DNA of 37,501 bases from Acidobacteriota bacterium (GTDB taxonomy: Bacteria; Acidobacteriota; Vicinamibacteria; Vicinamibacterales; JAFNAJ01), in NCBI GenBank assembly GCA_017860085.1, contig JAFNAJ010000001.1, positions 1 through 37,501 of the forward strand. The letters run 5' to 3'. Positions 1 to 35,476 of this stretch are shown here, one piece after another; within the stretch, counting starts at the first letter, position 1; every line of letters begins with the position of its first letter. Position numbers and translations under genes: made by a program. The notes under the pieces are model-generated. The model saw only the letters and a program-made list of their open reading frames with translations, had not been told where the DNA came from and did no database searches.

Positions 1-1
1 C

Positions 2-559: not shown

Positions 560-560
560 C

Positions 561-2516: not shown

Positions 2517-2525
2517 CTCGCGCAG

Positions 2526-2531
2526 ATTATA
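2526..2531 (-). promoter_or_regulatory. Candidate -10 element (TATAAT) for the ligase-thiolase unit
   Basis: Perfect TATAAT in very GC-rich DNA, 9 nt before ATG 2516; contains the TAA stop of the upstream gene. No good -35. Confidence 0.55.
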
Positions 2532-3441
2532 AGTCCCGGGTCGACAGCCGAGCGCGCCAGGCGGCCGCGGCCGCAAAGGCCCTCATCACGGCATCGCGAT
2601 CACCGAGCCCGCGGCGCATGGCGGACAGCTCCTCGATGAGGCGGTCGATGGCCGCTTCCAGGTGGTCGGCATTCGTGGCGCAGATATCCGCCCAGATGTC
2701 GCCCGGGCTCGACGCGAGCCGCGTCGTGTCGAGGAGGCCGCCCGCGGCCAGGTCCAGTCCCTCGTCTCCAACGGCCTCCCCGACCACGCGCATCAGCGCG
2801 CTGGCCGTCAGCTGCGGCAGGTGACTGACGAACGCGAGCAATGCGTCGTGGCGCGCCGGGTCCATGGGCATGGGTCGCGCCCCAACGGCCTCGACGAACG
2901 CCGAGACTTTCGAGAGGACCTCGCCTGGGAGGTCACCGCTCGGGGTGAGGATCCAGCGCCGACCGACGAACAGTCCGGCGGCCGCCGAGCCCAGTCCGCC
3001 GCGAGCGGCGCCAGTGAGGGGATGACCGCCGACAAACGACAACCGCCCCGGCAAGTCCGCCGCGGCGCGAACCACCGCGCGCTTGGTACTGCTGACGTCG
3101 GTGACGACAGCGTCTCCCGCAACGACGTCTGGCAGGTCGCGCAGGATGGAGATGGTCTGCAGGACGGGGGCCGAGAGGACGACCAAGTCGGCCTCGGCCA
3201 GCATGCCGAGGTCGTCGGCCCCGACGTCGATGGCGTGGCGGACCATCGCCTGCTCGAGCACCTCCTTCCGGTCCACCCCGATCACCAGCGTCGTCGGCCA
3301 GACCTCCCGGGCGGCAAGCGCGATCGACCCACCGATGAGCCCCAGACCGACCACCCCGATCCGCGCAAAGGGCGGTGGGCCCTCAGCGGGCGTCAGCGTG
3401 GTGTCGGCCGCACGGACCGGCAGACGTCGCGCGGCGGCCAC
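2527..3441 (-). CDS. tyrA: Prephenate/arogenate dehydrogenase
   Basis: Rossmann motif [50 protein letters not shown] start at 3441, just after the DAHP synthase stop (start uncertain). Confidence 0.9.
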
Positions 3442-3442
3442 G

Positions 3443-4492
3443 CTACCGGCCCCAGCCGCGCCTCGCCACCGGTTCCACGCAGATGCTGCGCCCAATGGCC
3501 GGGGCGATGATCCGAAGCTCGGCCATCAGCCGCTCGAACTGCGACGGGAACATCGACTGCGCGCCATCGCTCAGCGCGTGGTCGGGATCGCAGTGCACCT
3601 CGATGAGCAGGCCGTCGGCGCCGGCAGCGACGGCGGCCCGCGCCATGGGCGCGACCTTGTCACGACGGCCCGTGCCGTGGCTCGGATCGACGAACACGGG
3701 CAAGTGGCTCAGTTTCTTGACGACAGGAATGGCCGAGATGTCGAGGGTGTTGCGCGTGTAGCTCTCGAACGTACGGATCCCCCGCTCGCACAGGATCACG
3801 TGCATGTTGCCGCCGGCCAGCACGTACTCCGACGACAGCAACCACTCCTCGATGGTTGCCGAGATCCCCCGCTTGAGCAGGATGGGCTTGCGCGTCTTGC
3901 CGAGCTCGCGCAACAGCGTGAAGTTCTGCATGTTCCGCGCGCCCACCTGCAGGACGTCGGCGTATTGCACCACCACCTCGATCTGGCTCGCATCCATCAC
4001 CTCGGTGACCAGCGGCAACCCGTGTTGATCGGCGGCTGCGCGCAGCAGCCGCAGGCCCTCCTCGCCGAGCCCCTGGAAGCTGTAGGGCGAACTGCGGGGC
4101 TTGAAGGCCCCCCCGCGCAAGACCTTGGCGCCGGCCCGCTTGACGGCCGCCGCCGTGGCCTGCACCTGCTGCTCGCTCTCAGCCGAACAAGGGCCTGCCA
4201 TCACGATGACCTCGTCGCCGCCAATCCGCACGTCGCCGCACAGGAAGACCGTGTCGTCCTGCTTGAAGGTCCGGCTGGCCAGCTTGAACGGCTCGGTGAT
4301 GCGCACGACCTCCTGGACGCCCTCGAGCAGTTCGACCAGCCGAGGATCCCCCATCCGGGCGCCACCCACTGCCCCGATCACCGTTCGGGTCGCCCCAGTC
4401 GACCGGTGCACGTCGTAGCCCATCGTCACGAGCTGGGCCACGACCCGTTCGATCTGCTCCTCGGTCGCCCGTTCCTCCATCACGACCACCAT
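3443..4492 (-). CDS. aroF: DAHP synthase, class I-beta with N-terminal regulatory domain
   Basis: MAGPCSAE, GGAFKPRSSPYSFQGLG, VGARNMQNF, CERGIRTFE, DPSHGTGRR; GGAGGA RBS before ATG 4492. Confidence 0.94.
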   Translation of the reverse strand: MVVVMEERATEEQIERVVAQLVTMGYDVHRSTGATRTVIGAVGGARMGDPRLVELLEGVQEVVRITEPFKLASRTFKQDDTVFLCGDVRIGGDEVIVMAGPCSAESEQQVQATAAAVKRAGAKVLRGGAFKPRSSPYSFQGLGEEGLRLLRAAADQHGLPLVTEVMDASQIEVVVQYADVLQVGARNMQNFTLLRELGKTRKPILLKRGISATIEEWLLSSEYVLAGGNMHVILCERGIRTFESYTRNTLDISAIPVVKKLSHLPVFVDPSHGTGRRDKVAPMARAAVAAGADGLLIEVHCDPDHALSDGAQSMFPSQFERLMAELRIIAPAIGRSICVEPVARRGWGR

Positions 4493-4503
4493 GCCATCCT
4501 CCG

Positions 4504-4815
4504 TCACGCGTCCGCGCGCGTTCGGTCACCCTCGGGACCGTGCGTCGCTTGCTCGAGCGCTTCGCGCTCCAGGCGTCTTGCTTCGTCGATGATCCGCTCG
4601 AAGAGCCTCGTCATCGCCTGCCCGTCCAGCGGCCCTTTGTTCACGCCCCGCACGTGGGCCAGCACCTGCTGCTCACGGTCTGGCTGGTAGACGGCGAGGC
4701 CCAGCGCGTGCTTCAGTCGCCCAATCGCCAGCGCGCACTCGGCTCTCGCGCTGAGCAGCGCCACCAGCTCCTCGTCGAGGTCGTCGATCCGTCGACGCAG
4801 GTCGTCGATGGTCAC
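4504..4815 (-). CDS. Monofunctional chorismate mutase (AroQ type)
   Basis: IDDLRRRIDDLDEELVALLSARAECALAIGRLK...VYQPDREQQVL...LFERIIDEARRLE; GTGA overlap with the trpA stop. Confidence 0.9.
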   Translation of the reverse strand: MTIDDLRRRIDDLDEELVALLSARAECALAIGRLKHALGLAVYQPDREQQVLAHVRGVNKGPLDGQAMTRLFERIIDEARRLEREALEQATHGPEGDRTRADA

Positions 4816-5645
4816 CGCGGGCCGTCCTGTTCGCCGCCGAGCGGCCTCGGAGCGCACCCCCGACGAAGCGCGCGCACGAAGGCCTCGACGTGCTCGACCA
4901 ACGCGTCCGACTGCCCCCAGCGCCCGATCACGTCCACGAGGGCACTGCCAACCACGGCGGCGTCGGCCCACTGGGCCACGTCGGCCACGTGCTCAGGGGT
5001 CGAGAGCCCAAACCCGACGGCCACCGGCAGCGCCGTCTCGCGCTTGATGCGCGCCACCAGGTCGCGCGCTCCGTCGGCCAGGGACGCGCGCGCGCCGGTC
5101 ACACCCAGGCGAGAGATCGCGTAGAGGAACCCGCGCCCGAGGCGACCCGCCTCACGAATGCGGGCCGGCGTGGTAGTCGGACTCAGCAGGAAGATGGTAT
5201 CAAGCCCCACCCCTTCGAGCGCAGCGCGCAGGCCGCCGGCCTCCTCGACGGGCAGATCGAGGACGAGCACGCCATCGACGCCTGCCTCCGAGGCTCTGGC
5301 CGCGAAGCGGTCCAGCCCCACCCTGACGACGGGGTTCGCGTACGTGAAGAGCACGATCGGGGCGCGGATGGCCGCTCGCTCGCGAGCGACCATCTCGAGC
5401 GTGGCCGCGAGCGTGGTGCCCGACGCGAGAGCCCGTTCCGAGGCTCGCTGGATCACGGGACCGTCGGCGAGCGGGTCCGAGAACGGCACGCCTATCTCGA
5501 GGATGTCGGCCCCAGCGCCGTCGAGTGCCCCGAGGACTCGTGCCGACCGCTCGAGATCTGGATCGCCGGCCGTGACGTAGGTCACCAACCCGGCACGTCG
5601 TTCGGCGCCCAGCCGCTCGAACGTCTCTCGAATTCGCGACCTCAC
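4812..5645 (-). CDS. trpA: Tryptophan synthase alpha subunit
   Basis: [42 protein letters not shown]. Confidence 0.96.
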
Positions 5646-6898
5646 AACGACGGCTCCTGCCCCGCCGCGTCCGGGCGCAGTTGCCGTTCAACTGCCTGCA
5701 CGTCCTTGTCGCCCCGGCCCGAGAGGTTGACCAGCACGAGCTCAGGGGGTGACGACTCGCGCGCCAGTTCCCTGAGGTGCGCAATCCCGTGGGCGGACTC
5801 GAGCGCTGGGACGATGCCCTCGGTGCGGGCAAGCCACTGAAACGCCTCGAGCGCCTGTGCGTCGCTCACGTGTGCATACTCGGCGCGGCCCGACGATCGC
5901 AGCCACGCGTGCTCGGGGCCGATGGCCGCGTAGTCGAGCCCTGCCGACACCGAGTGGGTGGCGCCGATGTTGCCCGCGTCGTCTTGCAGCACGAAAGTGC
6001 GCGTGCCCTGAAGGATCCCCGGGCTGCCGCCCGCGAACCGCGCGGCATGACGGCCGGCCTCGATCGCCTCCCCTCCTGCCTCGACGCCAATCAACCGGAC
6101 GGCCGAGTCATCGATGAACGCGTCGAAGAGGCCCAGCGCGTTGCTGCCACCGCCCACGCAGGCCACCACCGCGTCAGGCAACCGCCCGTACTGTGCCAGG
6201 CACTGCGCGCGGGCCTCCTGCCCAATCACGGACTGGAACTCCCGGACCATGAGGGGGTAGGGGTGCGGCCCGAGCGCCGAGCCGAGCAGGTAGTGTGTGT
6301 CGTGCACGTTCGCGACCCAGTCGCGCATGGCCTCGTTGATCGCGTCCTTCAGGGTCCGACTTCCCGCATCGACGCCGTGCACGCGTGCGCCGAGCAGACG
6401 CATGCGGAACACGTTCAGGGCCTGACGGGCCATGTCGTCGACGCCCATGTACACGTCGCACGCCAGTCCGAGCAGTGCGCACACCGTGGCCGTGGCGACC
6501 CCGTGCTGGCCGGCGCCGGTCTCGGCCACGACGCGACGCTTCCCCATGCGCACGGCGAGCAGGCCCTGGCCGAGCGCATTGTTGATCTTGTGCGCGCCGG
6601 TGTGCGCCAGGTCCTCACGCTTCAGCAGCACCCTTGACGCGCCGAGCGCACTGGCCAGGCGCCGTGCCTCGTGGAGGGGTGTCGGGCGGCCGACGTAGTG
6701 GCGCAAGAGCGACGTGAACTGTTGCTCGAACGCCGGGTCGCTCCGGGCGTCGAGATAGGCCGCTTCGAGCTCGGCAATGGGCGCCACGAGCGTCTCGGGC
6801 ACGAAGCGGCCGCCGAACTCACCAAAGTAGCCGCGCGCGTCCGGATCGCGTCGCCCGAAGGCGCCGCGCACGGTGACGGGTGGTGCCTGGTCTTCCAT
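5642..6898 (-). CDS. trpB: Tryptophan synthase beta subunit
   Basis: [28 protein letters not shown] (PLP lysine), [18 protein letters not shown]. Start at ATG 6898 rather than the long ORF start. Confidence 0.96.
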
Positions 6899-6903
6899 CG
6901 ACC

Positions 6904-7545
6904 TCAACCGTTCTCCGTCCTGGGCCCAGCCGATGCGACCCTGACGGCCTCGAAGAATGCCCGCATCCGGCCCGCGTCCTTGACACCTGGCGACGCTTCC
7001 ACGCCCGACGCCACGTCGAGCGCCCACGGCTGCACCGACCGGATGGCCTCGGCAACGTTTCCCGCCGTGAGGCCACCCGCCAGGATGCTCCTCCGTCGCC
7101 GCGCCAGCCGGGCGGCCAGCGCCCAGTCCGCGACGCGACCAGTTCCACCCCGGCGCGCGCGATCGTCGGTATCGACGAGGAGCGTGACCTCGCCGGGCCA
7201 CACCTCGGCTACGACGTCGACCGTCGTGGGCGTCAGCCGCACGGCCTTGATCACCGGTCGTGGCAATCTCGCGGCTAGCGATGGGCCTTCGTCGCCGTGC
7301 AGTTGCACGGCCGCGAGCGGAACGTGCTCGCACCATCGGCGCACCTCGTCGGCGGGCGCGTTGACGAACACGCCGACCAGTACGACGAACGGCGGCAACG
7401 CCCGCGCAATGTCCCTGGCCTGGTCGAGCGCCACGACGCGCGGGCTGCCCCTCCACGTCACCACGCCGATGGCGCTGGCCCCGAGATCGACCGCCATTTC
7501 GGCATCGGCAGGCCGCGTGACGCCACACACCTTCACGCGGGTCAC
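6904..7545 (-). CDS. trpF: Phosphoribosylanthranilate isomerase
   Basis: [44 protein letters not shown]; GTGA overlap with the trpC stop. Confidence 0.94.
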
Positions 7546-8402
7546 GGCGGCACTCCCTGGTCGGCTCTTGTCGAGCCTGACGCGAGGCACCGTCGACCGG
7601 CCCCGAGCAAGTCCGCCAACGCGGCCCCCGGGTCGGGCGACGCCATGAAATGCTCGCCGATCAGGAACGCGTCGTATCCCGCCAAGGCCAACCCTGCGAC
7701 CACTGAAGGGTCCTTGAGACCGCTCTCCGCCACGGCCACCACATGGCCAGGCAACCGTGCAGCCAGGTCTCGTGAGGTCGAGGCCGACACTTCGAGCGTT
7801 CGCAGATTCCTGTTGTTCACGCCGACGATGTCGGCCCCCGCATCCACGGCACGGGCGACCTCGGTCGCGTCGTGCACCTCGACGACGGCCGCAAGCCCGA
7901 GGCCAGAGGCCTCCCCGAGCAGCGCCGCGAGTTGGTGCTGCTCGAGCGCCGCGACGATCAGCAGCACAGCGTCGGCGCCGTGTGCGACGGCCTCGAACAA
8001 CTGGTAGCGGTCGACGATGAAGTCCTTGCGGAGCACCGGAGTGGTGACGACCCGTCGGACTGCGGAGAGGTGATCCAGCGCGCCATCGAAAAAACACGGC
8101 TCGGTCAAGACCGACACGGCCACCGCGCCGGCGGCTTGGTACGCCGAGGCAATGCGGGGCGGATCGTACGCCGCCCGCAACACTCCACGAGACGGCGAAC
8201 GCCGCTTGCACTCGGCAATCACGCGGACATGGGGCCCAGTGCCGAGCGCCGATCTGAAGGCGGACCCTCTCGGCACGTGTCCCACGCACAGCCGCTCCAG
8301 CTCCGCCAGCGGAACCCGCGCCTCTCGCGCCTCGACGGTGCGTCGCGTCGAAGCGACAATCGCCTCGAGGAGATCGCCACCAGATCCCGGGGGCACCGTC
8401 AT
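7542..8402 (-). CDS. trpC: Indole-3-glycerol phosphate synthase
   Basis: [40 protein letters not shown]; ATGA overlap with trpD. Confidence 0.95.
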
Positions 8403-9418
8403 GCGTCCTCTCCCCGCGAACACGACGCCATCCGCGCGAGCGTCGAGGCCGACCGCCCCGAATCAATCGCGTCGATCGCCTGCTCCATGCCCTCGCGCAC
8501 CGTCGCGACGACGCCCGCAATGAGGAGCGCCGCACCCGCGTTCAGCACGACGATGTCTCGGGCTGGCCCTCCCTGCCCCGAGAGCACGTTGCGCGTCAGC
8601 GTGGCATTGTCGTCGGCAGTACCGCCCGTTAGCGCGTCGAGCGTGGTCTTTCTCAGGCCGAAGTCCGCCGGATGGACATAGAAGGTGTGCACCAGACCGG
8701 CGCGGCACTCGGAGACCTTCGTGTAGCCGCACGTGGACAGCTCGTCGAGACCGTCGGCGCCGTGCACCACCCACGCCCGATGGGACCCCAGCCTCGCGAG
8801 CGCGGTCGCCACCAACTCGGTCATCTCCGGCCGCGGCACACCGACGAGTTGTCGTCGCGCGCCGGCGGGGTTGGTCAGCGGCCCGAGGAGGTTGAAGGCC
8901 GTCCGCAACCCCAGGTCTCGCCGGGCCTGGCCGGCATGTCGCATCGACGGGTGGAACGTCGGCGCGAACAGGAACGCGATCCCGGCATCGGTGAGGCAGC
9001 GTTCCACCCTGTCGGGTGGCGCGGTCACATCGACGCCCAGCGCCTCGAACACGTCCGCGCTGCCACAGCGGCTCGATACCGAGCGGTTTCCGTGCTTGGC
9101 CACCAGCACGCCGCACGAGGCGACGACGATGGCCACCACCGACGAGATGTTGAACGTCCCTGCGCCGTCGCCACCCGTGCCGCACGTGTCGAACGCCTCC
9201 GGATACTCCCGCGACAGCCGCACCGCGTGCGCGCGCATGGTCGAGGCAAATCCCACCACCTCCGCGGGACGCTCGCCCTTGAGCCTGAGGCCGACGAGCA
9301 GCCCTCCGATCTGCGCCTGGGTTGCCCGCCCCGCCATGACCTCGGCCATCGCGCTGGCGGCCTCGTCGGTCGTCAGGTCGCGCTGGAGTGCGAGCTTCTC
9401 GAGAAGACCGGCGAACAT
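8399..9418 (-). CDS. trpD: Anthranilate phosphoribosyltransferase
   Basis: DTCGTGGDG, FNISS, KHGNRSVSSRCGSAD, FNLLGPLTNP, GLDELS; TGATG overlap with trpG. Confidence 0.95.
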   Translation of the reverse strand: MFAGLLEKLALQRDLTTDEAASAMAEVMAGRATQAQIGGLLVGLRLKGERPAEVVGFASTMRAHAVRLSREYPEAFDTCGTGGDGAGTFNISSVVAIVVASCGVLVAKHGNRSVSSRCGSADVFEALGVDVTAPPDRVERCLTDAGIAFLFAPTFHPSMRHAGQARRDLGLRTAFNLLGPLTNPAGARRQLVGVPRPEMTELVATALARLGSHRAWVVHGADGLDELSTCGYTKVSECRAGLVHTFYVHPADFGLRKTTLDALTGGTADDNATLTRNVLSGQGGPARDIVVLNAGAALLIAGVVATVREGMEQAIDAIDSGRSASTLARMASCSRGEDA

Positions 9419-9984
9419 CACAGCTCCATGAAGTTCCGCAGCATCCGGCGTCCCTCGACCGTCATGATCGACTCCGGGTGGAACTGCACGCCGTGCACCG
9501 GCCACGCCCGGTGCCTCAACGCCATCACCGTCCCATCGTCCGCCGCGCGCGCGGCCACCTCCAGGGCGGCCGGCCACCCGTCGTCGGACACGACCAGCGA
9601 GTGATAGCGTGCGGCCTCGAAGGATCCGGACAGCCCACGGAATACCCCGCGGCCGTCGTGTTCGACGGTCGACGTCTTGCCGTGCATCGGCCGAGGTGCC
9701 CTCACAACCAGACCACCAAAGGCGTGACCGATGGCCTGGTGCCCCAGGCAGACGCCCAGGATCGGCACCTCGGCTCCGAAGCGCCGAACCAGCTCGACCG
9801 AAACCCCGGCATCTTCGGGACGGCCCGGCCCCGGTGAGATGACAATCCGCGTGGGGCGAAGCCCGGCGATGTCGTCCAAGGTCACCGCGTCGTTTCGACG
9901 CACCACCACCTCGGCCCCCAGTTCGCCCAGGTACTGGGCGAGATTGAAGGTGAACGAGTCGTAGTTGTCGAGCAGCAGGACCAT
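9418..9984 (-). CDS. trpG: Anthranilate synthase component II (glutamine amidotransferase)
   Basis: DNYDSFT, ISPGPG, GVCLGHQ, RYHSL, GVQFHPES. Confidence 0.95.
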   Translation of the reverse strand: MVLLLDNYDSFTFNLAQYLGELGAEVVVRRNDAVTLDDIAGLRPTRIVISPGPGRPEDAGVSVELVRRFGAEVPILGVCLGHQAIGHAFGGLVVRAPRPMHGKTSTVEHDGRGVFRGLSGSFEAARYHSLVVSDDGWPAALEVAARAADDGTVMALRHRAWPVHGVQFHPESIMTVEGRRMLRNFMEL

Positions 9985-9988
9985 GGGT

Positions 9989-11479
9989 CTAGAGGCGCTC
10001 CGTCTGGGCCAGCTCGATGGCCTTCAGCAGCGCGCGCGCCTTGTCGCACGACTCCTCGAACTCCGACGCCGGATTCGAATCGGCCACGATCCCCGCACCA
10101 GCCTGCACCAACGCCCTCCCCTCCCGCATGACCACCGTGCGGATGGCGATGCAACAGTCGAGATTGCCGGCGAAATCGAGATAGCCAACCGCCCCCGCAT
10201 AGAGGCCCCTCGGCCCCGGCTCCTGCTCTGCGATGATCTCCATCGCACGAATCTTCGGCGCGCCCGACACCGTGCCAGCCGGGAAGCACGCGACCAGGGC
10301 GTCCAGTCGATCCCGGTCCTCGTCGAGGCGCCCCTCCACCCGCGACACCAGGTGCATCACGTGCGAATAGCGCTCGAGCGCCATGAACACCGGGACGCGC
10401 ACGGTTCCGGGTTCGCACACGCGTCCCAGGTCGTTCCGACCGAGGTCGACGAGCATGACGTGCTCGGCTCGCTCCTTCTCGTCACGCTTCAATTCCTCGC
10501 CCAGCCGCAGGTCTTCCTCGTCCGACCGGCCACGGGGACGAGTGCCCGCAATGGGGTGCGTCTCGACGCGTCGGCCTTCGACGCGCACGAGCATCTCGGG
10601 CGATGACCCAACGATGGCCAACTTGCCCATGCGGACGAAGTACATGTAGGGCGACGGGTTGACGTGACGCAGGGCACGATAGACCGCAAACGGGTCAGCC
10701 GTCACCTCCGCTTCGAACCGCTGCGACAAGACGACCTGGTACACGTCGCCCCGAGCGATGAGCTCCTGCGCGGCTCGCACCGACGCTTCGAAGCGCTCGC
10801 GTGTCGTGTTCGAGTGCACCTCCGGCGCGGCAGCGGGCCCGGCCGGTGCGCGCGACAGGGCCCGATCGAGTTCGCGCTCCAGAAACGCAATCCGCGCGCA
10901 GGCGAAGTGGTACAGCGTTTCGAGATCCTCGTTCGGCGTGATGCGCGCGTTGGCGATGGCCAGGATCCGGTGCTTGACGTGATCGAACGCGAGCACCGTG
11001 TCGAAGAGCATGAACCCGGCCTCGGGACCCTCTGCCGCCTGGGCGCTGCCGTACCGCTCCCAGACCGGCCTCAGGGCCGGCTCGAACCACGGCGAGGCGT
11101 CGTACCCAAAGAAGCCCACGGCTCCGCCTGTGAAGCGCGGCAGTTCGGGAACGAAGGGCGACCGGAACTCCGACATCAGCCGGCGGAGGGCGTCGACAAA
11201 CGGCTCGGCCAACTCGGTGGTCTCTCCACTTCGTTCGAGGATGGTCCGCCCCTGCGACGCACGAAGGACGAGAAACGGGTCCTTGCCGAGAAACGAGTAT
11301 CGGGCAACCTGCTCGCCTCCTTCCACGCTCTCGAGCAGGAAGGCGTAGTCGGAGAGTTCCGCGATCTTGAGGAAGGCGGACACCGGCGTCAGCAGGTCGG
11401 CCAGGATCTCCTTGTAGACCGGGACGAACGTGCCCCGGCGGGCCAACTCCACGAACTCTTCGAAGCTGGTCTGTCTCAT
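9989..11479 (-). CDS. trpE: Anthranilate synthase component I
   Basis: LLES and NPSPYM Trp-feedback motifs, PIAGTRPRG, EHVMLVDLGRND, FPAGTVSGAPK, QAGAGIVADS; ATG 11479 in ATGA overlap. Confidence 0.95.
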   Translation of the reverse strand: MRQTSFEEFVELARRGTFVPVYKEILADLLTPVSAFLKIAELSDYAFLLESVEGGEQVARYSFLGKDPFLVLRASQGRTILERSGETTELAEPFVDALRRLMSEFRSPFVPELPRFTGGAVGFFGYDASPWFEPALRPVWERYGSAQAAEGPEAGFMLFDTVLAFDHVKHRILAIANARITPNEDLETLYHFACARIAFLERELDRALSRAPAGPAAAPEVHSNTTRERFEASVRAAQELIARGDVYQVVLSQRFEAEVTADPFAVYRALRHVNPSPYMYFVRMGKLAIVGSSPEMLVRVEGRRVETHPIAGTRPRGRSDEEDLRLGEELKRDEKERAEHVMLVDLGRNDLGRVCEPGTVRVPVFMALERYSHVMHLVSRVEGRLDEDRDRLDALVACFPAGTVSGAPKIRAMEIIAEQEPGPRGLYAGAVGYLDFAGNLDCCIAIRTVVMREGRALVQAGAGIVADSNPASEFEESCDKARALLKAIELAQTERL

Positions 11480-12966
11480 GGTGCGTACCGCTCCTCGGGC
11501 CGGCCGTTCCTCTCGCCGTGCATGGCCGCCAGTCGCCGGGCTGCGGCCTCGCGCATGACCTCGGTCGGCGCCTGTTGTCCCGTCCACCACTCGAACTGCC
11601 GCGCCCCCTGCGCGACCAACATGTCGAGCCCGCCGATGGTGGTGCACCCGCGTCGCCGCGCCTCGGCGAGCAACGGCGTCTCCGCGGGGTGGTACGCGAG
11701 GTCGTAGACCAGGCGTCCATCGAGCGCCGTGCCTTCGACCGGGCTCGACACGCCATCGGGGCCGCTTTCGGCCGGTATGGCGTTGACCAGCAGGTCCCAC
11801 GTCCCAGGCGGGACGGGCAGAGGTCCCCACCCCGCACCGAAGGGTTCGGCCACTAGGCGGGCGCGTGTCGCGTCGCGGGCCCTCACGGTGACACGGGCTT
11901 CTCGATCGGTGAGGCCCGCCACGACGGCGCGCGCCGCACCTCCGGCTCCCACCACCGTTGCGCGGAGGCCCCCGAGCTCCAAGTCGGCCAAGGGTGCGAG
12001 GAATCCTTCGAGGTCGGTATTCGTGGACTCCCATCCCGCCAGGCTCTGAGACCACCGCAGCGTGTTCGCTGCATCGAGCCGCAACACGACGCTGTCTCGC
12101 GACACCGATGCGCGGGCTGCCGCCAGCTTGTGCGGCGCCGTCACGCTGCAGCCCTCCAGCCCCAGGACGGTTCGCGACGCGTCCACGTCCTCAAACGCCT
12201 CCGTTTCCAAAGGCAGGTAGACGGCGTCGACCTTCGTAACCGCAAATGCGGCGTTGTGCATCGCGGGCGACACAGAACGCCTGACGGATCGCCCGACCAC
12301 CCCATACACCCTCGTGCCGGGGCCCACGCTGCGAATTCGAAACTCGTCGAGGAGTCGTTCGAGCGAAAGCTGCCCGGCTGCCACGTCGCCGGCGTACGTC
12401 CACACCGACCCAAACCTCGACGGAAGGACTCGGGTCGCCACACCGGCCTCCCCCATGCCGACCAGCACGAGGCGCCCGCTGGCCCCGTGTTGGCGGCCGC
12501 ACGCGGCCAAGATCGGCAAGTCTGCCAGCCGCCCAACCAGCACGGCCATCTTGGCTCGCGCCGCGCCAGTGGCAAGCATCGCCCTCACACGTTCGGTCAG
12601 GTCGGAGGGAACGCCCCCGGACTCGTGCCACGACAGCACGATGCGGTCGGGGCACCGCGTCAGCAGGTCGTCTCGGAACGGCGCTCCCCATTCGACATCG
12701 ACGTACTCGGCACCAGCCTCGAGCGCGGCCTCCAGGATGCGGCGTCGCTCGTCCTCCCCGCCCTCGAAGCGCCCTCCATCCCAGCGAGGACGGCACGTAA
12801 CCACGGCCGGGCGCCTGCGACCTGCGAGCGCCGCGCCCGGGTCGGGCTCTTCGAGGCCATCGAGCCGCAGTTCGATCAGGTCGGCGCGGGCCGCCGCCTC
12901 GCGGTCGCGGCGCAGCTCGCCGTGACTGCCGGCCATCACGGTTGCACAGATTCGACAGTGGGTCAT
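11476..12966 (-). CDS. aroDE: Bifunctional type I 3-dehydroquinate dehydratase / shikimate dehydrogenase (AroD-AroE fusion)
   Basis: N-half: IELRLD, VVTCR..WDGG, YVDVE, LSWH, RAKMAV. C-half: SPAMHNAAF, SVTAPHK, AANTL, TNTD, GAGGAARA, DLAYHPAETPLL, GLDMLVAQG. Confidence 0.92.
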   Translation of the reverse strand: MTHCRICATVMAGSHGELRRDREAAARADLIELRLDGLEEPDPGAALAGRRRPAVVTCRPRWDGGRFEGGEDERRRILEAALEAGAEYVDVEWGAPFRDDLLTRCPDRIVLSWHESGGVPSDLTERVRAMLATGAARAKMAVLVGRLADLPILAACGRQHGASGRLVLVGMGEAGVATRVLPSRFGSVWTYAGDVAAGQLSLERLLDEFRIRSVGPGTRVYGVVGRSVRRSVSPAMHNAAFAVTKVDAVYLPLETEAFEDVDASRTVLGLEGCSVTAPHKLAAARASVSRDSVVLRLDAANTLRWSQSLAGWESTNTDLEGFLAPLADLELGGLRATVVGAGGAARAVVAGLTDREARVTVRARDATRARLVAEPFGAGWGPLPVPPGTWDLLVNAIPAESGPDGVSSPVEGTALDGRLVYDLAYHPAETPLLAEARRRGCTTIGGLDMLVAQGARQFEWWTGQQAPTEVMREAAARRLAAMHGERNGRPEERYAP

Positions 12967-12984
12967 CCTGAACCCGCGAACAGC

Positions 12985-13020
12985 AAAAAGCCCCTTCAAC
13001 CGGATCGGCTGAAGGGGCTT
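12985..13020 (-). terminator. Intrinsic terminator of the leader (attenuator)
   Basis: Minus strand AAGCCCCTTCAGCCG-ATC-CGGTTGAAGGGGCTT-TTTG: about 15-bp stem (one G-U) and a 5-U run, ending 18 nt before the aroDE ATG. Confidence 0.88.
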
Positions 13021-13046
13021 GCTGAGTCCGCGCCGTGCTGTTCACG

Positions 13047-13142
13047 CTAGGCCCGCGCAGCCTCCCCTTCGGTGCTGATGCCGCGCCACCACGCGCACGA
13101 CGTCGCGCGGATCACACGGCCGGGAAACTCGAAGGCAAACAT
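13047..13142 (-). CDS. trpL: Attenuator leader peptide, 31 aa: MFAFEFPGRVIRATSCAWWRGISTEGEAARA
   Basis: Hand-translated from ATG 13142 to TAG 13047. Tandem TGG TGG (13086-13091) and three Phe codons at positions 2, 4, 6; lies between promoter and terminator of the aro/trp operon. Confidence 0.85.
   Translation of the reverse strand: MFAFEFPGRVIRATSCAWWRGISTEGEAARA
13058..13070 (-). promoter_or_regulatory. Antiterminator 5' strand
   Basis: GAAGGGG-AG-GCTG in leader codons 25-29 is complementary to CAGC-AAG-CCCCTTC (13011-13024), which overlaps the terminator 5' arm. Confidence 0.78.
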
Positions 13143-13150
13143 CGCGTCGG

Positions 13151-13179
13151 ACGATAACAGAGCCCTTGGCCCCCGTCAA
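13151..13179 (-). promoter_or_regulatory. Sigma70-type promoter of the leader/aro-trp operon
   Basis: TTGACG-17 nt-TATCGT with extended TGn; 8 nt from the -10 to the leader ATG. Confidence 0.75.
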
Positions 13180-13208
13180 CTCGTGTGACCGGCGTGCGAC
13201 CGGCGACC

Positions 13209-13237
13209 TTGACCACCTTCGATCCGGTTGCTATAAC
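13209..13237 (+). promoter_or_regulatory. Sigma70-type promoter of the S55 peptidase operon
   Basis: TTGACC-17 nt-TATAAC with extended TGn; back-to-back with the aro/trp promoter. Confidence 0.72.
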
Positions 13238-13273
13238 CGAAACATAGAAGGTAGCGTGACAGCACGAAATCCC

Positions 13274-15100
13274 ATGCGATTCACGGTGGCCGCAGCCTGC
13301 GCGCTCCTCCTGCTCGGCGGCACATGCACAGACTCGCAGACGGCCTTGATGCCCGTCGACGAGGTCAGGGCCGGCATGACCGGGACGGGATACACCGTCT
13401 TCAAGGGCGAGGCTCCTGAGCCATTCACCGTCCATATTCTCGGCACGCTCCACAACGTCGTTGGCCCCCGTCGGACGATGATTCTGGCGCGACTCGAGGG
13501 CGGTCCGCTCGCCACGTCGGGCGTGATCGCGGGGATGAGCGGGAGCCCCGTCTACGTGGACGGCCGGCTCGTGGGCGCCATCGCGTACTCCCTCGGCGCG
13601 TTTCCCAGGGAGCCGATTGCGGGCATCACACCGATCGCCGAAATGATCGAGGCCGCTCGCCTGTCGACGCCGCGGTCGGCGTCGCAGCGCGCGTTGCCGA
13701 CGCGCCTCGACGCCCCCGACGCGCTCGCGTCAGCGGTGCGTGCGCTCCTGCCCGGCGCCTCGCCGTTTGCGGAGCGACTGGCGGACGTCCGCGTCGCCGG
13801 CGGCGACGTCGGGCCGTACGCCTTGAGCCTCACGCCCATCGCGACGCCGGTCTCCCTGGCAGGGTTCAGCGGTGACGCGCGAGCGGTGCTGACCAGCGTG
13901 CTCGAGCAGGGGGGGTTCGTCGCCGTCGCCGGCGGCAGCGCCTCGCCGTCCCGAGCACCGTCAGGTGACCGTGCTCTCGCGCCGGGCGACGCCGTTGGTG
14001 TGTCGCTCGTGTCGGGCGACCTGTCGCTGGCGGCCACGGGCACCGTGACCCACGTGGACGGTGACCGCGTCTACGCCTTCGGCCATCCCTTTCTCAATCT
14101 CGGTCCCATCTCGTTCCCCATGACGCGGGCCGAAGTTCACGCGGTCGTCCCCAGCCTGATGTCGTCGATGAAGCTCTCGAGCGTCGGCGCCCCGATCGGC
14201 ACGGTGCGTCAGGATCGGGCCTCGACCATCGCGGGAACGCTCGGCGCCCCTCCGCCGATGGTGCCCGTGCGGATCACGCTCGAGAGCCAGGGGGCGCCGT
14301 CGCGCCGGTTCGCCTTCGAGGTCGCCAACGACCAGGTGTTCACCCCGCTCCTCGCCTTCGCCACGGTCCTTTCCGTCTTCCAGTCGTACGAACGGGAGAT
14401 GGGGTCGGCCACGTTCGCCGTGTCGGGATCAGCCCGTGTCAAGGGGCTTGGCGCAGTGTCGCTCGAGAACGTCTTCGCGGGCGATGCTGCCTCGGCGAAT
14501 GCCGCGGCCTCGGTGGCAGCTCCCCTGACCTCTCTCCTGCGCAACGAGCTGGCCGACGTCGAGATCGAGGGGATCGACCTGGTGGTGCAGTCGACCGAGC
14601 AGACCCGCACGGCGACGATCGAGCGCGTGTGGCTCGACGGCGGCGATGTCCGAGCAGGTCGAACGCTCGTTCTCAAGATCGCCACGCGATCGTACCGTGG
14701 AGAGGAGACGGTCCGTTCACTGCCCGTCCCGATTCCCGAGCACGTGAGGGGCCCGCTGACGCTGCTCGTCGCTGACGCGAGCGCGCTCCGCGAGTGGGAG
14801 CAGCACGAGATCCGACCGGCGAGCGACGTGCAGAACATCGGGCAACTGATCCGGCAGTTGAACGAAACCCGCCGCAACAACCGCCTGTACGTGCGGCTCG
14901 CCAGCCAGTCGGCTGGTGCCGTGGTCGGCGGCGAGGCGATGCCCGCGTTGCCCCCGTCCGTGCTCACGGTGCTCGAAGCCGGCGGGACGAGTGGCAGCTT
15001 CACCCCCATCAGGAGCACCATCGTCGGCGAGTGGGACCTGCCGACCCCGGATGTGATCAAGGGTTCCCGTTCGCTCAGGCTTAACGTGGAGCCCCGTTGA
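13274..15100 (+). CDS. Secreted SpoIVB-like peptidase S55 domain protein
   Basis: Signal peptide MRFTVAAACALLLLGG; VRAGMTGTGYTVF, GVIAGMSGSPVYVDGRLVGAIAY (S55 catalytic Ser motif), AFGHPF. Start could be GTG 13256. Confidence 0.85.
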   Translation: MRFTVAAACALLLLGGTCTDSQTALMPVDEVRAGMTGTGYTVFKGEAPEPFTVHILGTLHNVVGPRRTMILARLEGGPLATSGVIAGMSGSPVYVDGRLVGAIAYSLGAFPREPIAGITPIAEMIEAARLSTPRSASQRALPTRLDAPDALASAVRALLPGASPFAERLADVRVAGGDVGPYALSLTPIATPVSLAGFSGDARAVLTSVLEQGGFVAVAGGSASPSRAPSGDRALAPGDAVGVSLVSGDLSLAATGTVTHVDGDRVYAFGHPFLNLGPISFPMTRAEVHAVVPSLMSSMKLSSVGAPIGTVRQDRASTIAGTLGAPPPMVPVRITLESQGAPSRRFAFEVANDQVFTPLLAFATVLSVFQSYEREMGSATFAVSGSARVKGLGAVSLENVFAGDAASANAAASVAAPLTSLLRNELADVEIEGIDLVVQSTEQTRTATIERVWLDGGDVRAGRTLVLKIATRSYRGEETVRSLPVPIPEHVRGPLTLLVADASALREWEQHEIRPASDVQNIGQLIRQLNETRRNNRLYVRLASQSAGAVVGGEAMPALPPSVLTVLEAGGTSGSFTPIRSTIVGEWDLPTPDVIKGSRSLRLNVEPR

Positions 15101-17363: not shown

Positions 17364-18119
17364 TCAGCTGATCGTCTTGCCGCGGACCGTGGTGTGGGTC
17401 ACCACCCACACCATGTTCACGGCCACCGGTGCGCCGGCGAACGAAGCAGGGCTGAAGCGCGCCTCCGACACGGCGCGCACGAGACGCGACACGGTCTCGT
17501 GGTCGCCCGCCGAGGCCCTCAGCACAGACGGTCGTACCACCAGCCCCTCTCTCGTGACGACGGCGGCCAATGCAAAGACCACGTCGTCGTCGGTCGAAGA
17601 CGACTCCTCGACCAGGGCCGATACCGCCGGCTCGCGCACCACGCGGGGCGGGACCATGCGCTCGTCGATGCTCACCGGGTAGAGGTTCGAACCCGGCGCT
17701 GCCAGCGCGGCCAGGATGCCGGCCAAGGAGTCTGCCCGCACCTGCGGCGCCAAGTAGCCGACGCCGACGAGCAGCGCAGCGCACAGGCCCGTTGCGGCGG
17801 TCGCGGCCAGCGCAGCCCACACCAGGTGCATGTCCTCGAACGCCCGACTCATTCGCACTCTGACCGACTGCTCGCGTTCGGCTTCTGCCCGGGCCACGGT
17901 GGCCTGGCCGGCGCGTGCGATCTCGTCGAGCGGCAGTGGCAGGCCCGTCGCGGCCCGCCTGATCACCTGCCCCAGTCGCTGCAGCCGTTCCACCTCCCGA
18001 GCGCACCCCTTGCAGCGCTCGAGGTGCGTCTCAACGGCACACATCTCCTGGACCGTGAGTTCGCGGTCGCAGAACCCGGACAGGTGGCGTCTGAGGCGGG
18101 CGCAGGTCAGGCGCGTCAT
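17364..18119 (-). CDS. Zinc-binding anti-sigma factor (zf-HC2) with TM helix and TonB C-terminal-like domain
   Basis: C..RRHLSGFCDREL...HLERCKGC (HxxxCxxC); hydrophobic LVWAALAATAATGLCAALLVGVGYL; C-terminal AVVTREGLV...AVSEARFSPASFAGAPVAVNM; overlaps the sigma stop. Confidence 0.82.
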   Translation of the reverse strand: MTRLTCARLRRHLSGFCDRELTVQEMCAVETHLERCKGCAREVERLQRLGQVIRRAATGLPLPLDEIARAGQATVARAEAEREQSVRVRMSRAFEDMHLVWAALAATAATGLCAALLVGVGYLAPQVRADSLAGILAALAAPGSNLYPVSIDERMVPPRVVREPAVSALVEESSSTDDDVVFALAAVVTREGLVVRPSVLRASAGDHETVSRLVRAVSEARFSPASFAGAPVAVNMVWVVTHTTVRGKTIS

Positions 18120-18721
18120 AGGTCCACCAGTTGGGCGCGCAAGGCTTCCCGCGCGCGAGCCAGGCGAGACTTCACCGTTCCCCCCGCCACGCCCAGTGAA
18201 AACGCGATCTCCTCATAGCTCAGACCATCGATCTCGCGAAGCACGATCGCCGTGCGCTGCTCGAACGGCAGCTGCTCGAGCGCCCGCCAGACGCGGTCGG
18301 CAGTCTCCTTCTGGTCGAGAAGCCTGTCTGGGGCCGGACCGGCGTCTCGAAACGCCCGTTCACCGCGTGCGCGAACGTGCTCGTCGAGCGACACCTGGTC
18401 GCCCTGCCGGCGACGACGCCACCAGCGCTGCCGGTTCCACGCCTGGTTGACGACGATCCGATAAATCCAGGTCCGGAGACTCGACTGGCCCTTGAAGGTG
18501 CCGAGTGTCCGGAAGACGCGCAGGAAGACCTCCTGCGATACGTCGAGCGCCTCGTTGTGATCGCCCAGCAGGTGAAGCGCCAGTTGATACACCATGCGCT
18601 GGTGCTGCTCGACGAGATCGCTGCACGCCACCTCGTCGCCGGCTGAACAGCGGGCGATGAGTGCGGCCTCGCCGGTCTCGACCCCGGTCCAGGCAAGTGC
18701 GGCTGCGGGTTTGGCGGACAT
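18116..18721 (-). CDS. ECF sigma-70 factor (RpoE/SigW-like)
   Basis: Region 2 DVSQEVFLRVFRTLGTFKGQSSLRTWIYRIVVN; region 4 LREIDGLSYEEIAFSLGVAGGTVKSRLARAR. Alternative GTG start at 18733. Confidence 0.93.
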   Translation of the reverse strand: MSAKPAAALAWTGVETGEAALIARCSAGDEVACSDLVEQHQRMVYQLALHLLGDHNEALDVSQEVFLRVFRTLGTFKGQSSLRTWIYRIVVNQAWNRQRWWRRRRQGDQVSLDEHVRARGERAFRDAGPAPDRLLDQKETADRVWRALEQLPFEQRTAIVLREIDGLSYEEIAFSLGVAGGTVKSRLARAREALRAQLVDL

Positions 18722-18766
18722 CCTTTCGGCCACCAGGCGCTCTCCGGCTAGAATACCGACGATAGA

Positions 18767-20239: not shown

Positions 20240-23200
20240 TCAGCCTTCGGCCGTCGGCTCCTTGCTGTCGGCGCTCAGCCCTCGCTCGGGCAGGCCCAGG
20301 CGCGAGATCAGCTTCGAGAGCCCCTGCCGGCTGATGCCCAGTTCCCTGGCGGTGGACCCGCGGTGTCCCTGGTTGCGCAGCAGCGCATCGCGCACGAAGC
20401 CTGCCTCAAATGATCGTCGCGCGGCATCGAGACGGGCCGGCCCGCCCGCGCGCGGCGCTCCGAGCGTCCGGAGTGACGCCGGGAGCATGCCGGCGGCGAC
20501 GCGGCCTCGGCGCGGGGCCGAGACCGCGAGCAAGGCCATCACGTTCTGCAGTTCTCGCACGTTGCCCGGCCAGTGGTACCGCTCGAGGGCGCTCAGTGTG
20601 TCAGGGTCGAGCGTCGCCTTGCTGCCCGCCCGTGCCGCAGCGTCCCGCCAGAAATGCGCGGCCAGGAGGGCGATGTCTTCGCGTCGTTCCCGAAGCGGGG
20701 GAAGGGCAAGGCGTACCACGTCGAGCCGATAGCGCAGGTCATCGCGGAACCGCCCCAGCCCGACTTCGCGCGACAGCGAGCGGTTCGTGGCCGCCACGAT
20801 GCGGACGTCGACGCGTCGTGCCACGTTCTCGCCGACGCGGCGCACCTCGCCTTCCTGCAGCACCCGGAGCAACTTGGCCTGCGCACGAGGTGACAGCTCG
20901 GTCACCTCGTCCAGGAAGAGCGTGCCGCCATCGGCCTCCTCGAACACGCCGGCCCGCTCGCTGATTGCGCCCGTGAATGCGCCGCGCGTGTGGCCAAAGA
21001 GCTCCGCCTCGAGCAGATCGTCGGTGATGGCTGCGCAGTTGATCGCGCAGAACCGCCGGTGCCGCCTCGAGCCGGCTCGATGGAGTGCCCGAGCCACCAG
21101 TTCCTTCCCGCTCCCGCTTTCCCCCTCGATGAGCACTGGAAACGGCACCTGCGCCGCCTGCCGCACGCGCTGTCGCAGGTCTTCGATCACCCCGCTTCCA
21201 CCGACGATGTCGAGGTCGTCTGCCTGGGCGGCCGACGGCAGGGCACGTCGGTCGAGCACGCTGCGCACCGCTGGCGCCGCCGCTGCTGCAGCGGTGGTCA
21301 GCACCGCGAGCACGCGGCTGGGATCTGGCCGGTCGTCGAGGCACCAGCGTGCGCAGAGCGCCGCAATGGGAAGACCTCCATAGCGAACGGCCGTGGCCGT
21401 CTCCACGCCAGCGTCCACCTCGAATGGCGGGATCGACGACCCCGTGCTGACGGCGCGCTCTGCCAGCGAGAAGGCCACGCGGTTTGTCGCGCTGGCGCGG
21501 GCCAGGGGCGTTCCATCCTCCGCATCGAAGCCCACCGCAACGGCACCCAGGCGCGACCGCAGCAGCGCGCAGATTCTCCCAAGCGCGTCCCGCTCGTCAT
21601 CCGCGGCCTGGCAGATCTGCAGGACGTCGACCACCTCGTCCACCACCTCGAACCTCCTCCCTGCCCGCCACGCGACCGACGACGGCGCGCCCATGTCGTG
21701 GGTCAGCCGCGCCCGTCCGATTTGCCGGCGCGGCGCCGCGCCAGCTTCGGCCAGCGCTTGGTCGACCTGGACGCGGACCAGCGGCGGCAGTCGCGTGCGG
21801 TGTCGCATCAACCATCGGGCTGCCGCCCGTGCCTCGCGGGCCGGGCCACGCTGCAGCCGTGCGCCCACGAGTGCAGCCCTGATCGTCGCCGCGGCCACCA
21901 GGCTGTGCGCGCGGTCGGCGGCATCCGTTCCCTCTCGGGCTGCGCGGACCATGCCTTCGACGTCGGCCAGTGCCGCGTGCACGCGCAACCTGGCAGTCAA
22001 GAGCCAGGCTCTGGCAAGTGGATCGCCCCAGGGACGCGCGTGCCAGGCGTCGCGCACAGCCTCGTGCGCGCTGCGAATATCGCCACGGGTCAGTGCCACA
22101 CGCACCCGCAGAGCCCACCACTGCGCCGCGACGAGATCGTCCGTGCCGGGTGCCATGTCGACGAGGTCGAGCACCTCAACCGCACGGTGGATCTCACCCT
22201 GCCACGCACAGCATCGCGCCAGCATCACCCCGCAACCCGGGTGCCCGCGCCCATGCGCTGCCACAGAGGCGGCCCATGCACCCTCCAGCACGTCGCGCGC
22301 CGCCGCAAACTGCCCAAGGTCGGTGCGGAGGCACCCAGTTGCTGCCGCCACCTCGAAGGCGATGTCTGGCGTCCGTGCGGACGACAGGGCGAGGGTGACG
22401 TGCGCCACGGCCGACAACGCGTCGCGCGACCGCCCCTGTTGCCGCAGCCGACCGGCGAGCGCCAACGCCGCGTCGATGCTCGCCTCGGCAGCGTCACGAT
22501 CGTGAGCCAGGTACGCACGTCGTCTGAGCGCACGCTCGCAGGCGGCGAAGCGCCGGCGCGCAAGCAGTTGGGCGACCGGCGTCCGGCAGTCGCCAGCAGC
22601 CCACGCGACGGGGCTCACGGCAGGCGCGTCCCGAAGACTCGGAGACTCTGCGAGCGGCGCTGCGCCGGCACCGGCGGCCGACACGCGCACGATCGCCGCG
22701 GCGCGTGCGGGCGAACAGGCAACGAGCACGGCGCCACCCGCCAGCCCGCCCGTTCCCTCGTCTGCGGGACCGCCATCAGTGGCCAGCACCACGACTGATC
22801 GTCCTCGCCACTCGCGCAAGACGGTCCAGTGCGATGCGACGACATTCGCGTTGAGCACCGCGAGTCCTCGTTCGCGCGCCTCGAGCGCCACGCGCTCCAC
22901 GAATCCAATCGCGGCATCGGCTGGTACACTCAGGTGCACGGCACGAGCCCGCGCCGGTTCGACGGCGTCGAGCACTTCGGTCAGCCGGCGAAGCGCGTCG
23001 GCACCCGCCGCCGTACCGCACCAGGCGTCTCCACGCTCACCGACTTGCCTCGCGCGTCGCACGGTAAACGGCCGTCCATCAGGGTGTCTGCCCTCGGTGA
23101 CCACGACCGCCGCCTCGCCGCGCAGCCAACCGTCGTCTCGCTCGCGTGACAGGCTGACCGGGGTCGACTCGCCGATGGGTCCGTGGCTCCACGAGACGTC

Positions 23201-23305
23201 GACCGGCAGACCGGTGGCCAGGTCGCGCCAACGTCCGCCGACCTGGCGCGCGAATCGATCGTCCAGGTGTTCGAGCGCACCACGACGCAGGGCCGTCCGG
23301 GCCAT
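20240..23305 (-). CDS. Large sigma54-dependent enhancer-binding protein
   Basis: C-terminal AAA+: GESGSGKE, ELFGHTRGAFTGA, GTLFLDEV, FRDDLRYRL, WPGNVREL, Fis-type HTH (TARELGISRQGL). About 700-aa N-terminal region with helical repeats and a GAF-like segment. Confidence 0.9.
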   Translation of the reverse strand: MARTALRRGALEHLDDRFARQVGGRWRDLATGLPVDVSWSHGPIGESTPVSLSRERDDGWLRGEAAVVVTEGRHPDGRPFTVRRARQVGERGDAWCGTAAGADALRRLTEVLDAVEPARARAVHLSVPADAAIGFVERVALEARERGLAVLNANVVASHWTVLREWRGRSVVVLATDGGPADEGTGGLAGGAVLVACSPARAAAIVRVSAAGAGAAPLAESPSLRDAPAVSPVAWAAGDCRTPVAQLLARRRFAACERALRRRAYLAHDRDAAEASIDAALALAGRLRQQGRSRDALSAVAHVTLALSSARTPDIAFEVAAATGCLRTDLGQFAAARDVLEGAWAASVAAHGRGHPGCGVMLARCCAWQGEIHRAVEVLDLVDMAPGTDDLVAAQWWALRVRVALTRGDIRSAHEAVRDAWHARPWGDPLARAWLLTARLRVHAALADVEGMVRAAREGTDAADRAHSLVAAATIRAALVGARLQRGPAREARAAARWLMRHRTRLPPLVRVQVDQALAEAGAAPRRQIGRARLTHDMGAPSSVAWRAGRRFEVVDEVVDVLQICQAADDERDALGRICALLRSRLGAVAVGFDAEDGTPLARASATNRVAFSLAERAVSTGSSIPPFEVDAGVETATAVRYGGLPIAALCARWCLDDRPDPSRVLAVLTTAAAAAAPAVRSVLDRRALPSAAQADDLDIVGGSGVIEDLRQRVRQAAQVPFPVLIEGESGSGKELVARALHRAGSRRHRRFCAINCAAITDDLLEAELFGHTRGAFTGAISERAGVFEEADGGTLFLDEVTELSPRAQAKLLRVLQEGEVRRVGENVARRVDVRIVAATNRSLSREVGLGRFRDDLRYRLDVVRLALPPLRERREDIALLAAHFWRDAAARAGSKATLDPDTLSALERYHWPGNVRELQNVMALLAVSAPRRGRVAAGMLPASLRTLGAPRAGGPARLDAARRSFEAGFVRDALLRNQGHRGSTARELGISRQGLSKLISRLGLPERGLSADSKEPTAEG

Positions 23306-35402: not shown

Positions 35403-35476
35403 GCGGGCTTAGCATAGTGGTAATGCTCTGGCTTCCCAAGCCAGCTAGACGGGTTCGATTCCCGTAGCCCGCTCCA
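35403..35476 (+). tRNA. tRNA-Gly (anticodon CCC)
   Basis: Acceptor GCGGGCT/AGCCCGC, D-arm GCAT/ATGC, anticodon arm CTGGC-TTCCCAA-GCCAG, T-arm ACGGG-TTCGATT-CCCGT, discriminator T plus encoded CCA. TGcTAGACT candidate extended -10 at 35348-35356. Confidence 0.96.

Follow-up and report, generated by a model that had tools for sequence, protein, structure and literature searches.

The window, a 37,501-nucleotide (nt) stretch (69% GC) of contig JAFNAJ010000001.1 from an Acidobacteriota bacterium of the order Vicinamibacterales (GCA_017860085.1; 3.27 Mb assembly), carries a short leader region on the minus strand immediately upstream of aroDE. Taken as a whole, this region is, with good confidence, best explained as a ribosome-mediated (leader-peptide) transcription attenuator of an 11-gene operon, aroDE-trpEGDCFBA-CM-DAHPS-tyrA (CM, chorismate mutase; DAHPS, DAHP synthase). 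The attenuator itself and an input from Trp are held with greater confidence still. The element is real, conserved and uncatalogued, and its mechanism is classical: an open reading frame (ORF) with pathway codons, a terminator before the first gene, an alternative antiterminator and a geometry suited to stalling and stopping of the ribosome are all present.

The leader region starts with a promoter-like site (13151–13179), TTGACG (13179–13174) and TATCGT (13156–13151) separated by 17 nt, with TG before the −10 hexamer. The site is unique in positions 12000–14000 (mean of 0.1 in shuffled sequences) and in 1–13300, and TTGAC[ACG]-17/18-TAnnnT was present in 29/29 leaders examined. The leader ORF (13047–13142), MFAFEFPGRVIRATSCAWWRGISTEGEAARA, has 31 sense codons plus TAG (ATG at 13142, stop at 13049–13047). 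Because the −10 hexamer and the ATG are 8 nt apart and no Shine-Dalgarno sequence lies upstream of the ATG, the leader mRNA is probably leaderless, its transcript starting on the AUG or no more than a few bases away. In the family of leaders described below, the start codon is found 8–12 nt past the −10 hexamer in 34/66, and 31 leaders have a gap of at least 14 nt, with a Shine-Dalgarno-like motif in three of these (3/31).

Near the start of the ORF are three Phe codons, F2 (UUU), F4 (UUC) and F6 (UUU; together 13125–13139), a candidate Phe sensor, and a predicted segment 1, or anti-antiterminator (UU.CCUUCG.GU; 13127–13138). Predicted folds place a central hairpin, possibly a pause hairpin, at 13080–13120, with the Trp codons W18 and W19 (UGG UGG; 13086–13091), the regulatory codons, in its 3′ arm. 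The ‘box’ (segment 2, the antiterminator 5′ strand; GAAGGGG-AG-GCUG, 13058–13070) lies 15 nt downstream of these in codons 25–29, its core ending 13 nt before the stop. Its complement, the antiterminator 3′ strand CAGC-AAG-CCCCUUC (13011–13024), overlaps the 5′ arm of an intrinsic terminator (12983–13020: 5′ arm, 13020–13007; loop, 13006–13002; 3′ arm, 13001–12988; U-tract, 12987–12983). The terminator stem (13020–12988) has 14–15 pairs, nine of them G-C, and is followed by TTTTTGCTG; it is the sole strong terminator-like site in 13.3 kb and the aroDE ATG (12966) is found 21 nt further on. Because the upstream gene, encoding a signal-peptide protein with a Peptidase_S55-like stretch, is divergent, the hairpin terminates no other gene. 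For the whole leader RNA, the predicted folding energy is −90.1 kcal/mol (z = −3.9 relative to 200 dinucleotide-shuffled sequences). The first-pass annotation, made from the sequence alone, had listed the promoter, the 31-codon ORF, the complementarity of the box and the terminator before aroDE, and each was found at its given place on the minus strand.

Across loci, aroDE starts 2–79 nt past the terminator stem (≤40 nt in most; window, 12964–12987), often within the U/A-rich terminator tail, and a Shine-Dalgarno sequence is not obvious in the window or in the relatives' loci. A TTATAG-like motif between the leader promoter and the divergent gene (window, ~13205–13264) recurs in several relatives and may be that gene's own promoter element. 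Metagenome contig L168, with an AroDE 99% identical to that of the window, carries the same leader except for a change of codon 20 from CGC to TGC (AWWR to AWWC), beside the Trp codons.

Among relatives with AroDE ≤56% identical to that of the window, a promoter, a short ORF with a Trp run, an in-ORF box and a terminator lie upstream of aroDE in 28/29 loci, the terminator being near-constant (AGCCTCTTCAGCC...GGTTGAAGAGGCTTTTT). The same leader architecture was found in 61 of 62 metagenome loci with sufficient upstream sequence; loci with <150–200 nt upstream were skipped. Genome collections yielded 66 non-redundant leaders, and addition of the metagenome loci gave 127 distinct leader peptides. 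Covariance model R1 was built from an alignment of the 66 (A2). L017 (G013), which has no leader, was excluded from the alignments, and the 66 also exclude L030 (leader present, under the terminator score cut-off), duplicates L031, L047, L050 and L057, and 17 loci with a hairpin and no promoter-regex match, several of which are outgroups.

R1 matches 144 of 151 sampled Vicinamibacterales genomes, in 78/79 genera and 19/19 families; for genomes of high quality the count is 130/136. R1 has one strong match in the genome of the window, where two weak ones (C294, C324) were rejected as chance hits, being inside coding sequence at GTGGTGGTGG strings. In G013, the exception without a leader (L144, G013:C7), there is no R1 match; tyrA alone follows aroDE, and trp genes are absent from the vicinity. 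In a phylum-wide sample, R1 gave strong matches in 10/10 genomes of the same order and weak ones in 13/140 others. Seven of the eight weak matches inspected are Trp-run leaders (WWWC, WWWYC, WWWR, WWWP, WWWH and one GWWC), with trpE (two), a trpB-like gene (two), aroDE (one) or a gene without Pfam assignment (two) downstream; L133, the eighth, lacks a Trp-run ORF and has an RNA-ligase-like gene downstream. From these outgroup leaders it follows that Trp attenuation of such design is old in Acidobacteriota, the present version being particular to the order.

Covariation is seen in the two competing helices. In A2, 93.9% of cells are paired in the terminator, with changes on both sides in 9/14 pairs, and 88.4% in the antiterminator (box plus terminator 5′ arm), with both-side changes in 6/11 pairs; slid controls, with the partner shifted by 1–3 columns, gave 36–62% and 42–58% pairing, respectively. 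The Trp run is near-invariant in the same alignment. In the 66 leaders, a median of 15 nt separates the core box from the last Trp codon (window, 15), the spacing between core box end and stop codon is exactly 13 nt in 36 (window, 13) and the median distance from stop to terminator arm is 28 nt (window, 26), so that the spacings of the window, 15, 13 and 26 nt, are the modal design. Four short leaders have the stop codon in or just before the box, where a terminating ribosome would still sit on the box. With conservation throughout the order, covariation of both helices and maintained spacings, the leader-peptide attenuator proposed in the first-pass annotation stands.

The box consensus (GGAGAGGC, GAAGGGGC, GAAGAGGC; window, 13058–13070; A2 columns 56–63) resembles a Shine-Dalgarno sequence, and the terminator 5′ arm an anti-Shine-Dalgarno sequence. 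A terminating ribosome might hold the box via the 16S rRNA tail, which would explain the exact 13-nt spacing.

Folds were constrained with a ribosome footprint of ~29 nt, an assumed size taken from general knowledge, on a transcript ending before the terminator 3′ arm. Under such constraints the box GAAGGGG-AG-GCUG pairs with CAGC-AAG-CCCCUUC as a helix. With no ribosome, GCCUUCG (codons 3–5, in segment 1) pairs with CGAAGG of the box and the terminator arm is free. A footprint at F2, F4 or F6 leads to pairing of the box with CCCCUUC, i.e. to the antiterminator, while one at the stop masks the box, which, together with the fixed 13-nt spacing, fits the earlier proposal that a ribosome reaching the stop covers the antiterminator strand. 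With a footprint at W18/W19 and only RNA 3′ of the ribosome folded, the antiterminator forms. Predicted helix energies are −12.0 kcal/mol for segment 1 with the box (1:2), −16.9 for the antiterminator (2:3) and −28.6 for the terminator (3:4).

In the proposed mechanism, transcription would start on, or a few bases from, the AUG that opens the 31-codon leader ORF. When translation proceeds freely to the stop, the ribosome would lie on or against the box GAAGGGGAGGCUG, the terminator would form and transcription would end before aroDE. When charged tRNA-Trp is scarce, a ribosome stalled at W18/W19, 15 nt upstream, would leave the box free to pair with the emerging terminator 5′ arm, allowing RNA polymerase to read through. 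If no ribosome is loaded, pairing of GCCUUCG with the box would make termination the default, and in a shortage of Phe, stalling at codons 2, 4 and 6 would mask this 5′ segment and so free the antiterminator.

In the six-residue cluster around the Trp run, the 127 leaders have 46% W, 20% Y and 4% F, percentages inflated by selection of the six-residue window to maximise aromatics. Tyr is present in the cluster in 112/127, so that in the family as a whole the second amino acid is mainly Tyr, rather than Phe as in the first-pass annotation. The strongest evidence for a dual Phe/Trp sensor comes from a natural split of the operon in genus g41 (G058, G147). There, trpEGDCFBA is preceded by a W-only leader with WWWW or WWW (...SRSWWWWSTS or ...SSSSWWWRNTIH). 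Upstream of CM-DAHPS-tyrA, these genomes carry a paralogous attenuator that shares the box and the terminator and has a Tyr/Phe-rich leader: MSTSLRAARPGYAYYAPH (...GYAYYAPH) or ...AFGYAFTYWGWFTTH.

The OR gate for Phe or Trp starvation put forward in the first-pass annotation is plausible on the modelled folds. Its Phe part gains from the predicted freeing of the antiterminator when F2, F4 or F6 is masked and from in-frame enrichment of N-terminal Phe, and the gate as a whole from the separation of Tyr/Phe-rich and Trp-only leaders onto the two halves of the split operon, but the window has no Tyr codon and one UUC per block arises automatically. A shortage of Phe as second input is given about even chances. 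A three-input aromatic sensor on a leaderless mRNA, with a Phe block on the anti-antiterminator strand and a Trp/Tyr run upstream of the antiterminator strand, is a tentative reading, rather more likely wrong than right. If true, a shortage of any one aromatic amino acid would open a single aro-trp-tyr supraoperon, and splitting of the operon would send a W-only leader to the trp genes and a Y/F-rich one to CM-DAHPS-tyrA.

Several results weigh against an attenuator working in this way or against its additional inputs. The promoter and the leaderless start rest on consensus matches only. When the 5′ RNA is allowed to pair forward in the Trp-stall fold, the minimum-energy structure lacks the antiterminator, although long-range pairs across a Trp-stalled ribosome are physically doubtful. 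The terminator greatly exceeds the antiterminator in stability (−28.6 versus −16.9 kcal/mol), so that read-through must be kinetic; in classical attenuators read-through is likewise kinetic. Pairing of segment 1 with the box is no stronger in the window than in shuffled sequences (z = −0.02), and for the family the mean z is −0.74, with 22% of 63 below −1.64. The window leader is atypical, with two Trp codons (as in 27/127 leaders; 87/127 have three), and is one of 6/127 in which neither Tyr nor Phe adjoins the Trp run. The split-operon evidence is drawn from one genus and probably reflects a single evolutionary event, and, as related sequences are not independent, the enrichment figures overstate their support. 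Prephenate dehydratase (pheA), the Phe-specific gene, was found in the operon in 0/20 loci checked. One N-terminal UUC in each block comes about automatically, as the strand complementary to the GAAG of the box contains CUUC, which reads UUC in one frame.

The last two points also favour an ordinary trpL-type attenuator sensing Trp only, in which the sequence required of the anti-antiterminator strand, or a U-rich 5′ end, would bring along the N-terminal Phe codons as a by-product, a reading given slightly less than an even chance. The MPRFFSPF sub-family has AGC CCC UUC, which is exactly complementary to GAAGGGGC. The window genome's pheA is on another contig, 24 nt directly behind a transporter-like ORF that leaves no room for a leader, and no leader was found upstream of it. 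Leaders of outgroup Acidobacteriota before trpE, trpB-like genes and aroDE are W-only (WWWC, WWWR, WWWP, WWWH), and UUU is over-represented among leader Phe codons (35/77, versus 47/192 in the relatives' aroDE), which points to an RNA-level or composition cause. On the other hand, Phe accounts for 8.1% of residues before the cluster, versus 1.4% after it and 3.1% in AroDE proteins, and in the first 66 leaders N-terminal Phe is enriched in frame (6.1%, versus 3.2% in either other frame). Enrichment extends beyond the best box-complementary segment (7.5% inside, 5.4% outside), and at least three N-terminal Phe are present in 27/127 leaders, including a large MPRFFSPF...ASYWWWY group, where complementarity explains only one per block. 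A Trp-only attenuator also leaves aside the Tyr/Phe-rich leaders that control CM-DAHPS-tyrA on the same RNA scaffold in the split operon, and the predicted freeing of the antiterminator by a ribosome held on codons 2–6.

A hairpin that is no switch at all, either a plain terminator or an mRNA-stabilising structure with the small ORF as a chance frame, would draw on the many spurious ORFs that 69% GC DNA yields, but the divergent upstream gene leaves it no gene to terminate, the ORF, Trp run, box and spacings are kept over 19 families in which AroDE is only ~50% identical, and the box covaries with the terminator arm; it is very improbable. The same low probability is given to control by a trans factor, whether a TRAP-like protein, uncharged tRNA (T-box) or a small ligand (riboswitch). 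The trp/aro supraoperon of Bacillus subtilis is under the RNA-binding protein TRAP according to the available portion of PMC1173090. For the Vicinamibacterales leader, however, no Rfam family, T-box included, was matched at gathering score and only noise at E up to 10 (12900–13300), and a switch driven by protein or ligand would need neither a conserved Trp/Tyr reading frame nor a fixed distance to the stop.

Novelty of the attenuator was assessed against Rfam and the literature. At gathering score, the whole window gave a single Rfam match, a tRNA gene (35403–35473, plus strand), and no leader (Trp_leader, Phe_leader and others), T-box or riboswitch family. At E up to 10, 12900–13300 gave three unrelated small RNA models, far below their thresholds, and no leader family. 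No ligand-, tRNA- or protein-binding RNA domain was matched in Rfam; TRAP-type triplet repeats were not specifically searched. A literature search for attenuators or leader peptides in Acidobacteria or Vicinamibacteria returned nothing relevant within a coverage that leaves out most subscription journals, where a prior description may exist. The features that appear new are the lineage, a start that is probably leaderless, mixed Trp/Tyr/Phe codons matched to an aro-trp-tyr operon, and the position of the box, which lies within the ORF and at a constant spacing from its stop.

Enterobacterial thr and ilv leaders are multivalent, one peptide carrying codons of several end-product amino acids. 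The Vicinamibacterales leaders share this feature, but thr and ilv leaders use other amino acids and intersperse the codons in one block, instead of separate N-terminal and central blocks. In Escherichia coli trpL, a short leader ORF with tandem Trp codons is followed by mutually exclusive antiterminator and terminator structures, with read-through on a Trp stall. The leader described here has the same tandem Trp codons, exclusive structures and, as proposed, Trp-stall read-through, with no sequence or Rfam relationship to trpL. It differs further in that the antiterminator 5′ strand is in the ORF, 13 nt before the stop, and the mRNA is probably leaderless; in the family, Tyr and Phe codons are also present and the operon includes common-pathway and Tyr-branch genes.

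The aroR leader of Corynebacterium glutamicum was reportedly studied by Neshat et al. in 2014. This leader, with Phe-Tyr-Phe, lies upstream of aroF and answers to Phe, not Tyr (PMC11802643, in the text available, which also mentions the E. coli trpL attenuator). It is a precedent for a mixed-aromatic leader, and it likewise attenuates an operon with a DAHP synthase gene. From what that text describes, aroR differs in being from another phylum, having no Trp codons and controlling no trp operon; of the leaders described here, the paralogous GYAYY leader of G058 comes closer to it.

Candidate trp attenuators of Corynebacterium and Streptomyces, as far as the accessible part of PMC1262725 describes them, have double or triple UGG and GC-rich terminators. 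They resemble the Vicinamibacterales leader in high GC and in a complementary pattern common to antiterminator and terminator, and differ in sensing Trp only, in controlling trp genes only and in lineage. The passages of PMC1173090 on trp/aro supraoperons and on attenuators predicted in front of tyrA clusters make no mention of Acidobacteria. The B. subtilis supraoperon described there is similar in having the trp operon embedded among aro and tyrA genes in one complex transcription unit, but its trp genes are TRAP-regulated without a leader peptide and the gene order is different. Mycobacterial leaderless polycysteine short ORFs heading polycistronic mRNAs, in the excerpt of bioRxiv 10.1101/834739, are also similar, being leaderless and tying downstream expression to one amino acid through codon content. 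They sense Cys, whereas the Vicinamibacterales leader has an evident intrinsic terminator and a covarying antiterminator.

Gene regulation in Acidobacteriota, which are abundant in soil, is almost unstudied experimentally. The leader adds a well-defined, order-wide family of cis-regulatory RNA with a covariance model in hand and no Rfam match, and suggests control of aromatic amino-acid synthesis in this lineage by attenuation of the classical type, on what are probably leaderless transcripts. The mixed Trp/Tyr/Phe codons match the combined operon, and the split operon puts these codons on separate leaders, offering a natural system for the wiring and evolution of multi-input attenuators. For annotation, the leader shows where a ~10.4-kb operon truly begins and what its regulatory unit is.

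The operon (minus strand; genes assigned by Pfam, abutting or overlapping) joins common-pathway, Trp-branch and Tyr-branch genes, as the first-pass annotation had noted; the Phe-branch content that it also assigned lacks pheA. The first structural gene, aroDE (11476–12966; PF01487, PF08501, PF18317), encodes a fused type I 3-dehydroquinase and shikimate dehydrogenase. The trp block (4812–11480) follows, with trpE (~11480–9989), trpG (9984–9418), trpD (~9421–8399), trpC (8423–7542), trpB (~6900–5642) and trpA (5645–4812), the starts of these being approximate, and trpF (~7563–6904; PRAI, E = 7e-41) in its own frame between trpC and trpB. A trpF-trpB fusion (628-aa ORF, 5642–7528) was rejected as an over-extended trpB frame. 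Chorismate mutase (CM_2, ~4821–4504), DAHP synthase with an FXD domain (4507–3443) and the prephenate dehydrogenase gene tyrA (~3444–2527) complete the operon, and a gene for an AMP-binding enzyme is next after tyrA. Gene order is kept in 17/17 full-length loci with the leader, CM, DAHPS or trpG hits being missing in some.

His-type leaders with terminators were also seen upstream of hisI-like ORFs: MMFVRHARHHHPARAAEVRV in L161 (G021:C20, ~23148–23280) and MTFRLHHATRHHHRRLAEARV in L163 (G050:C2, ~152436–152518). Attenuation thus seems to be used for histidine genes too in Vicinamibacterales. Elsewhere in the window, a zf-HC2 anti-sigma-like gene comes after one for an ECF sigma factor (Sigma70_r2/r4; 17364–18733, minus strand).

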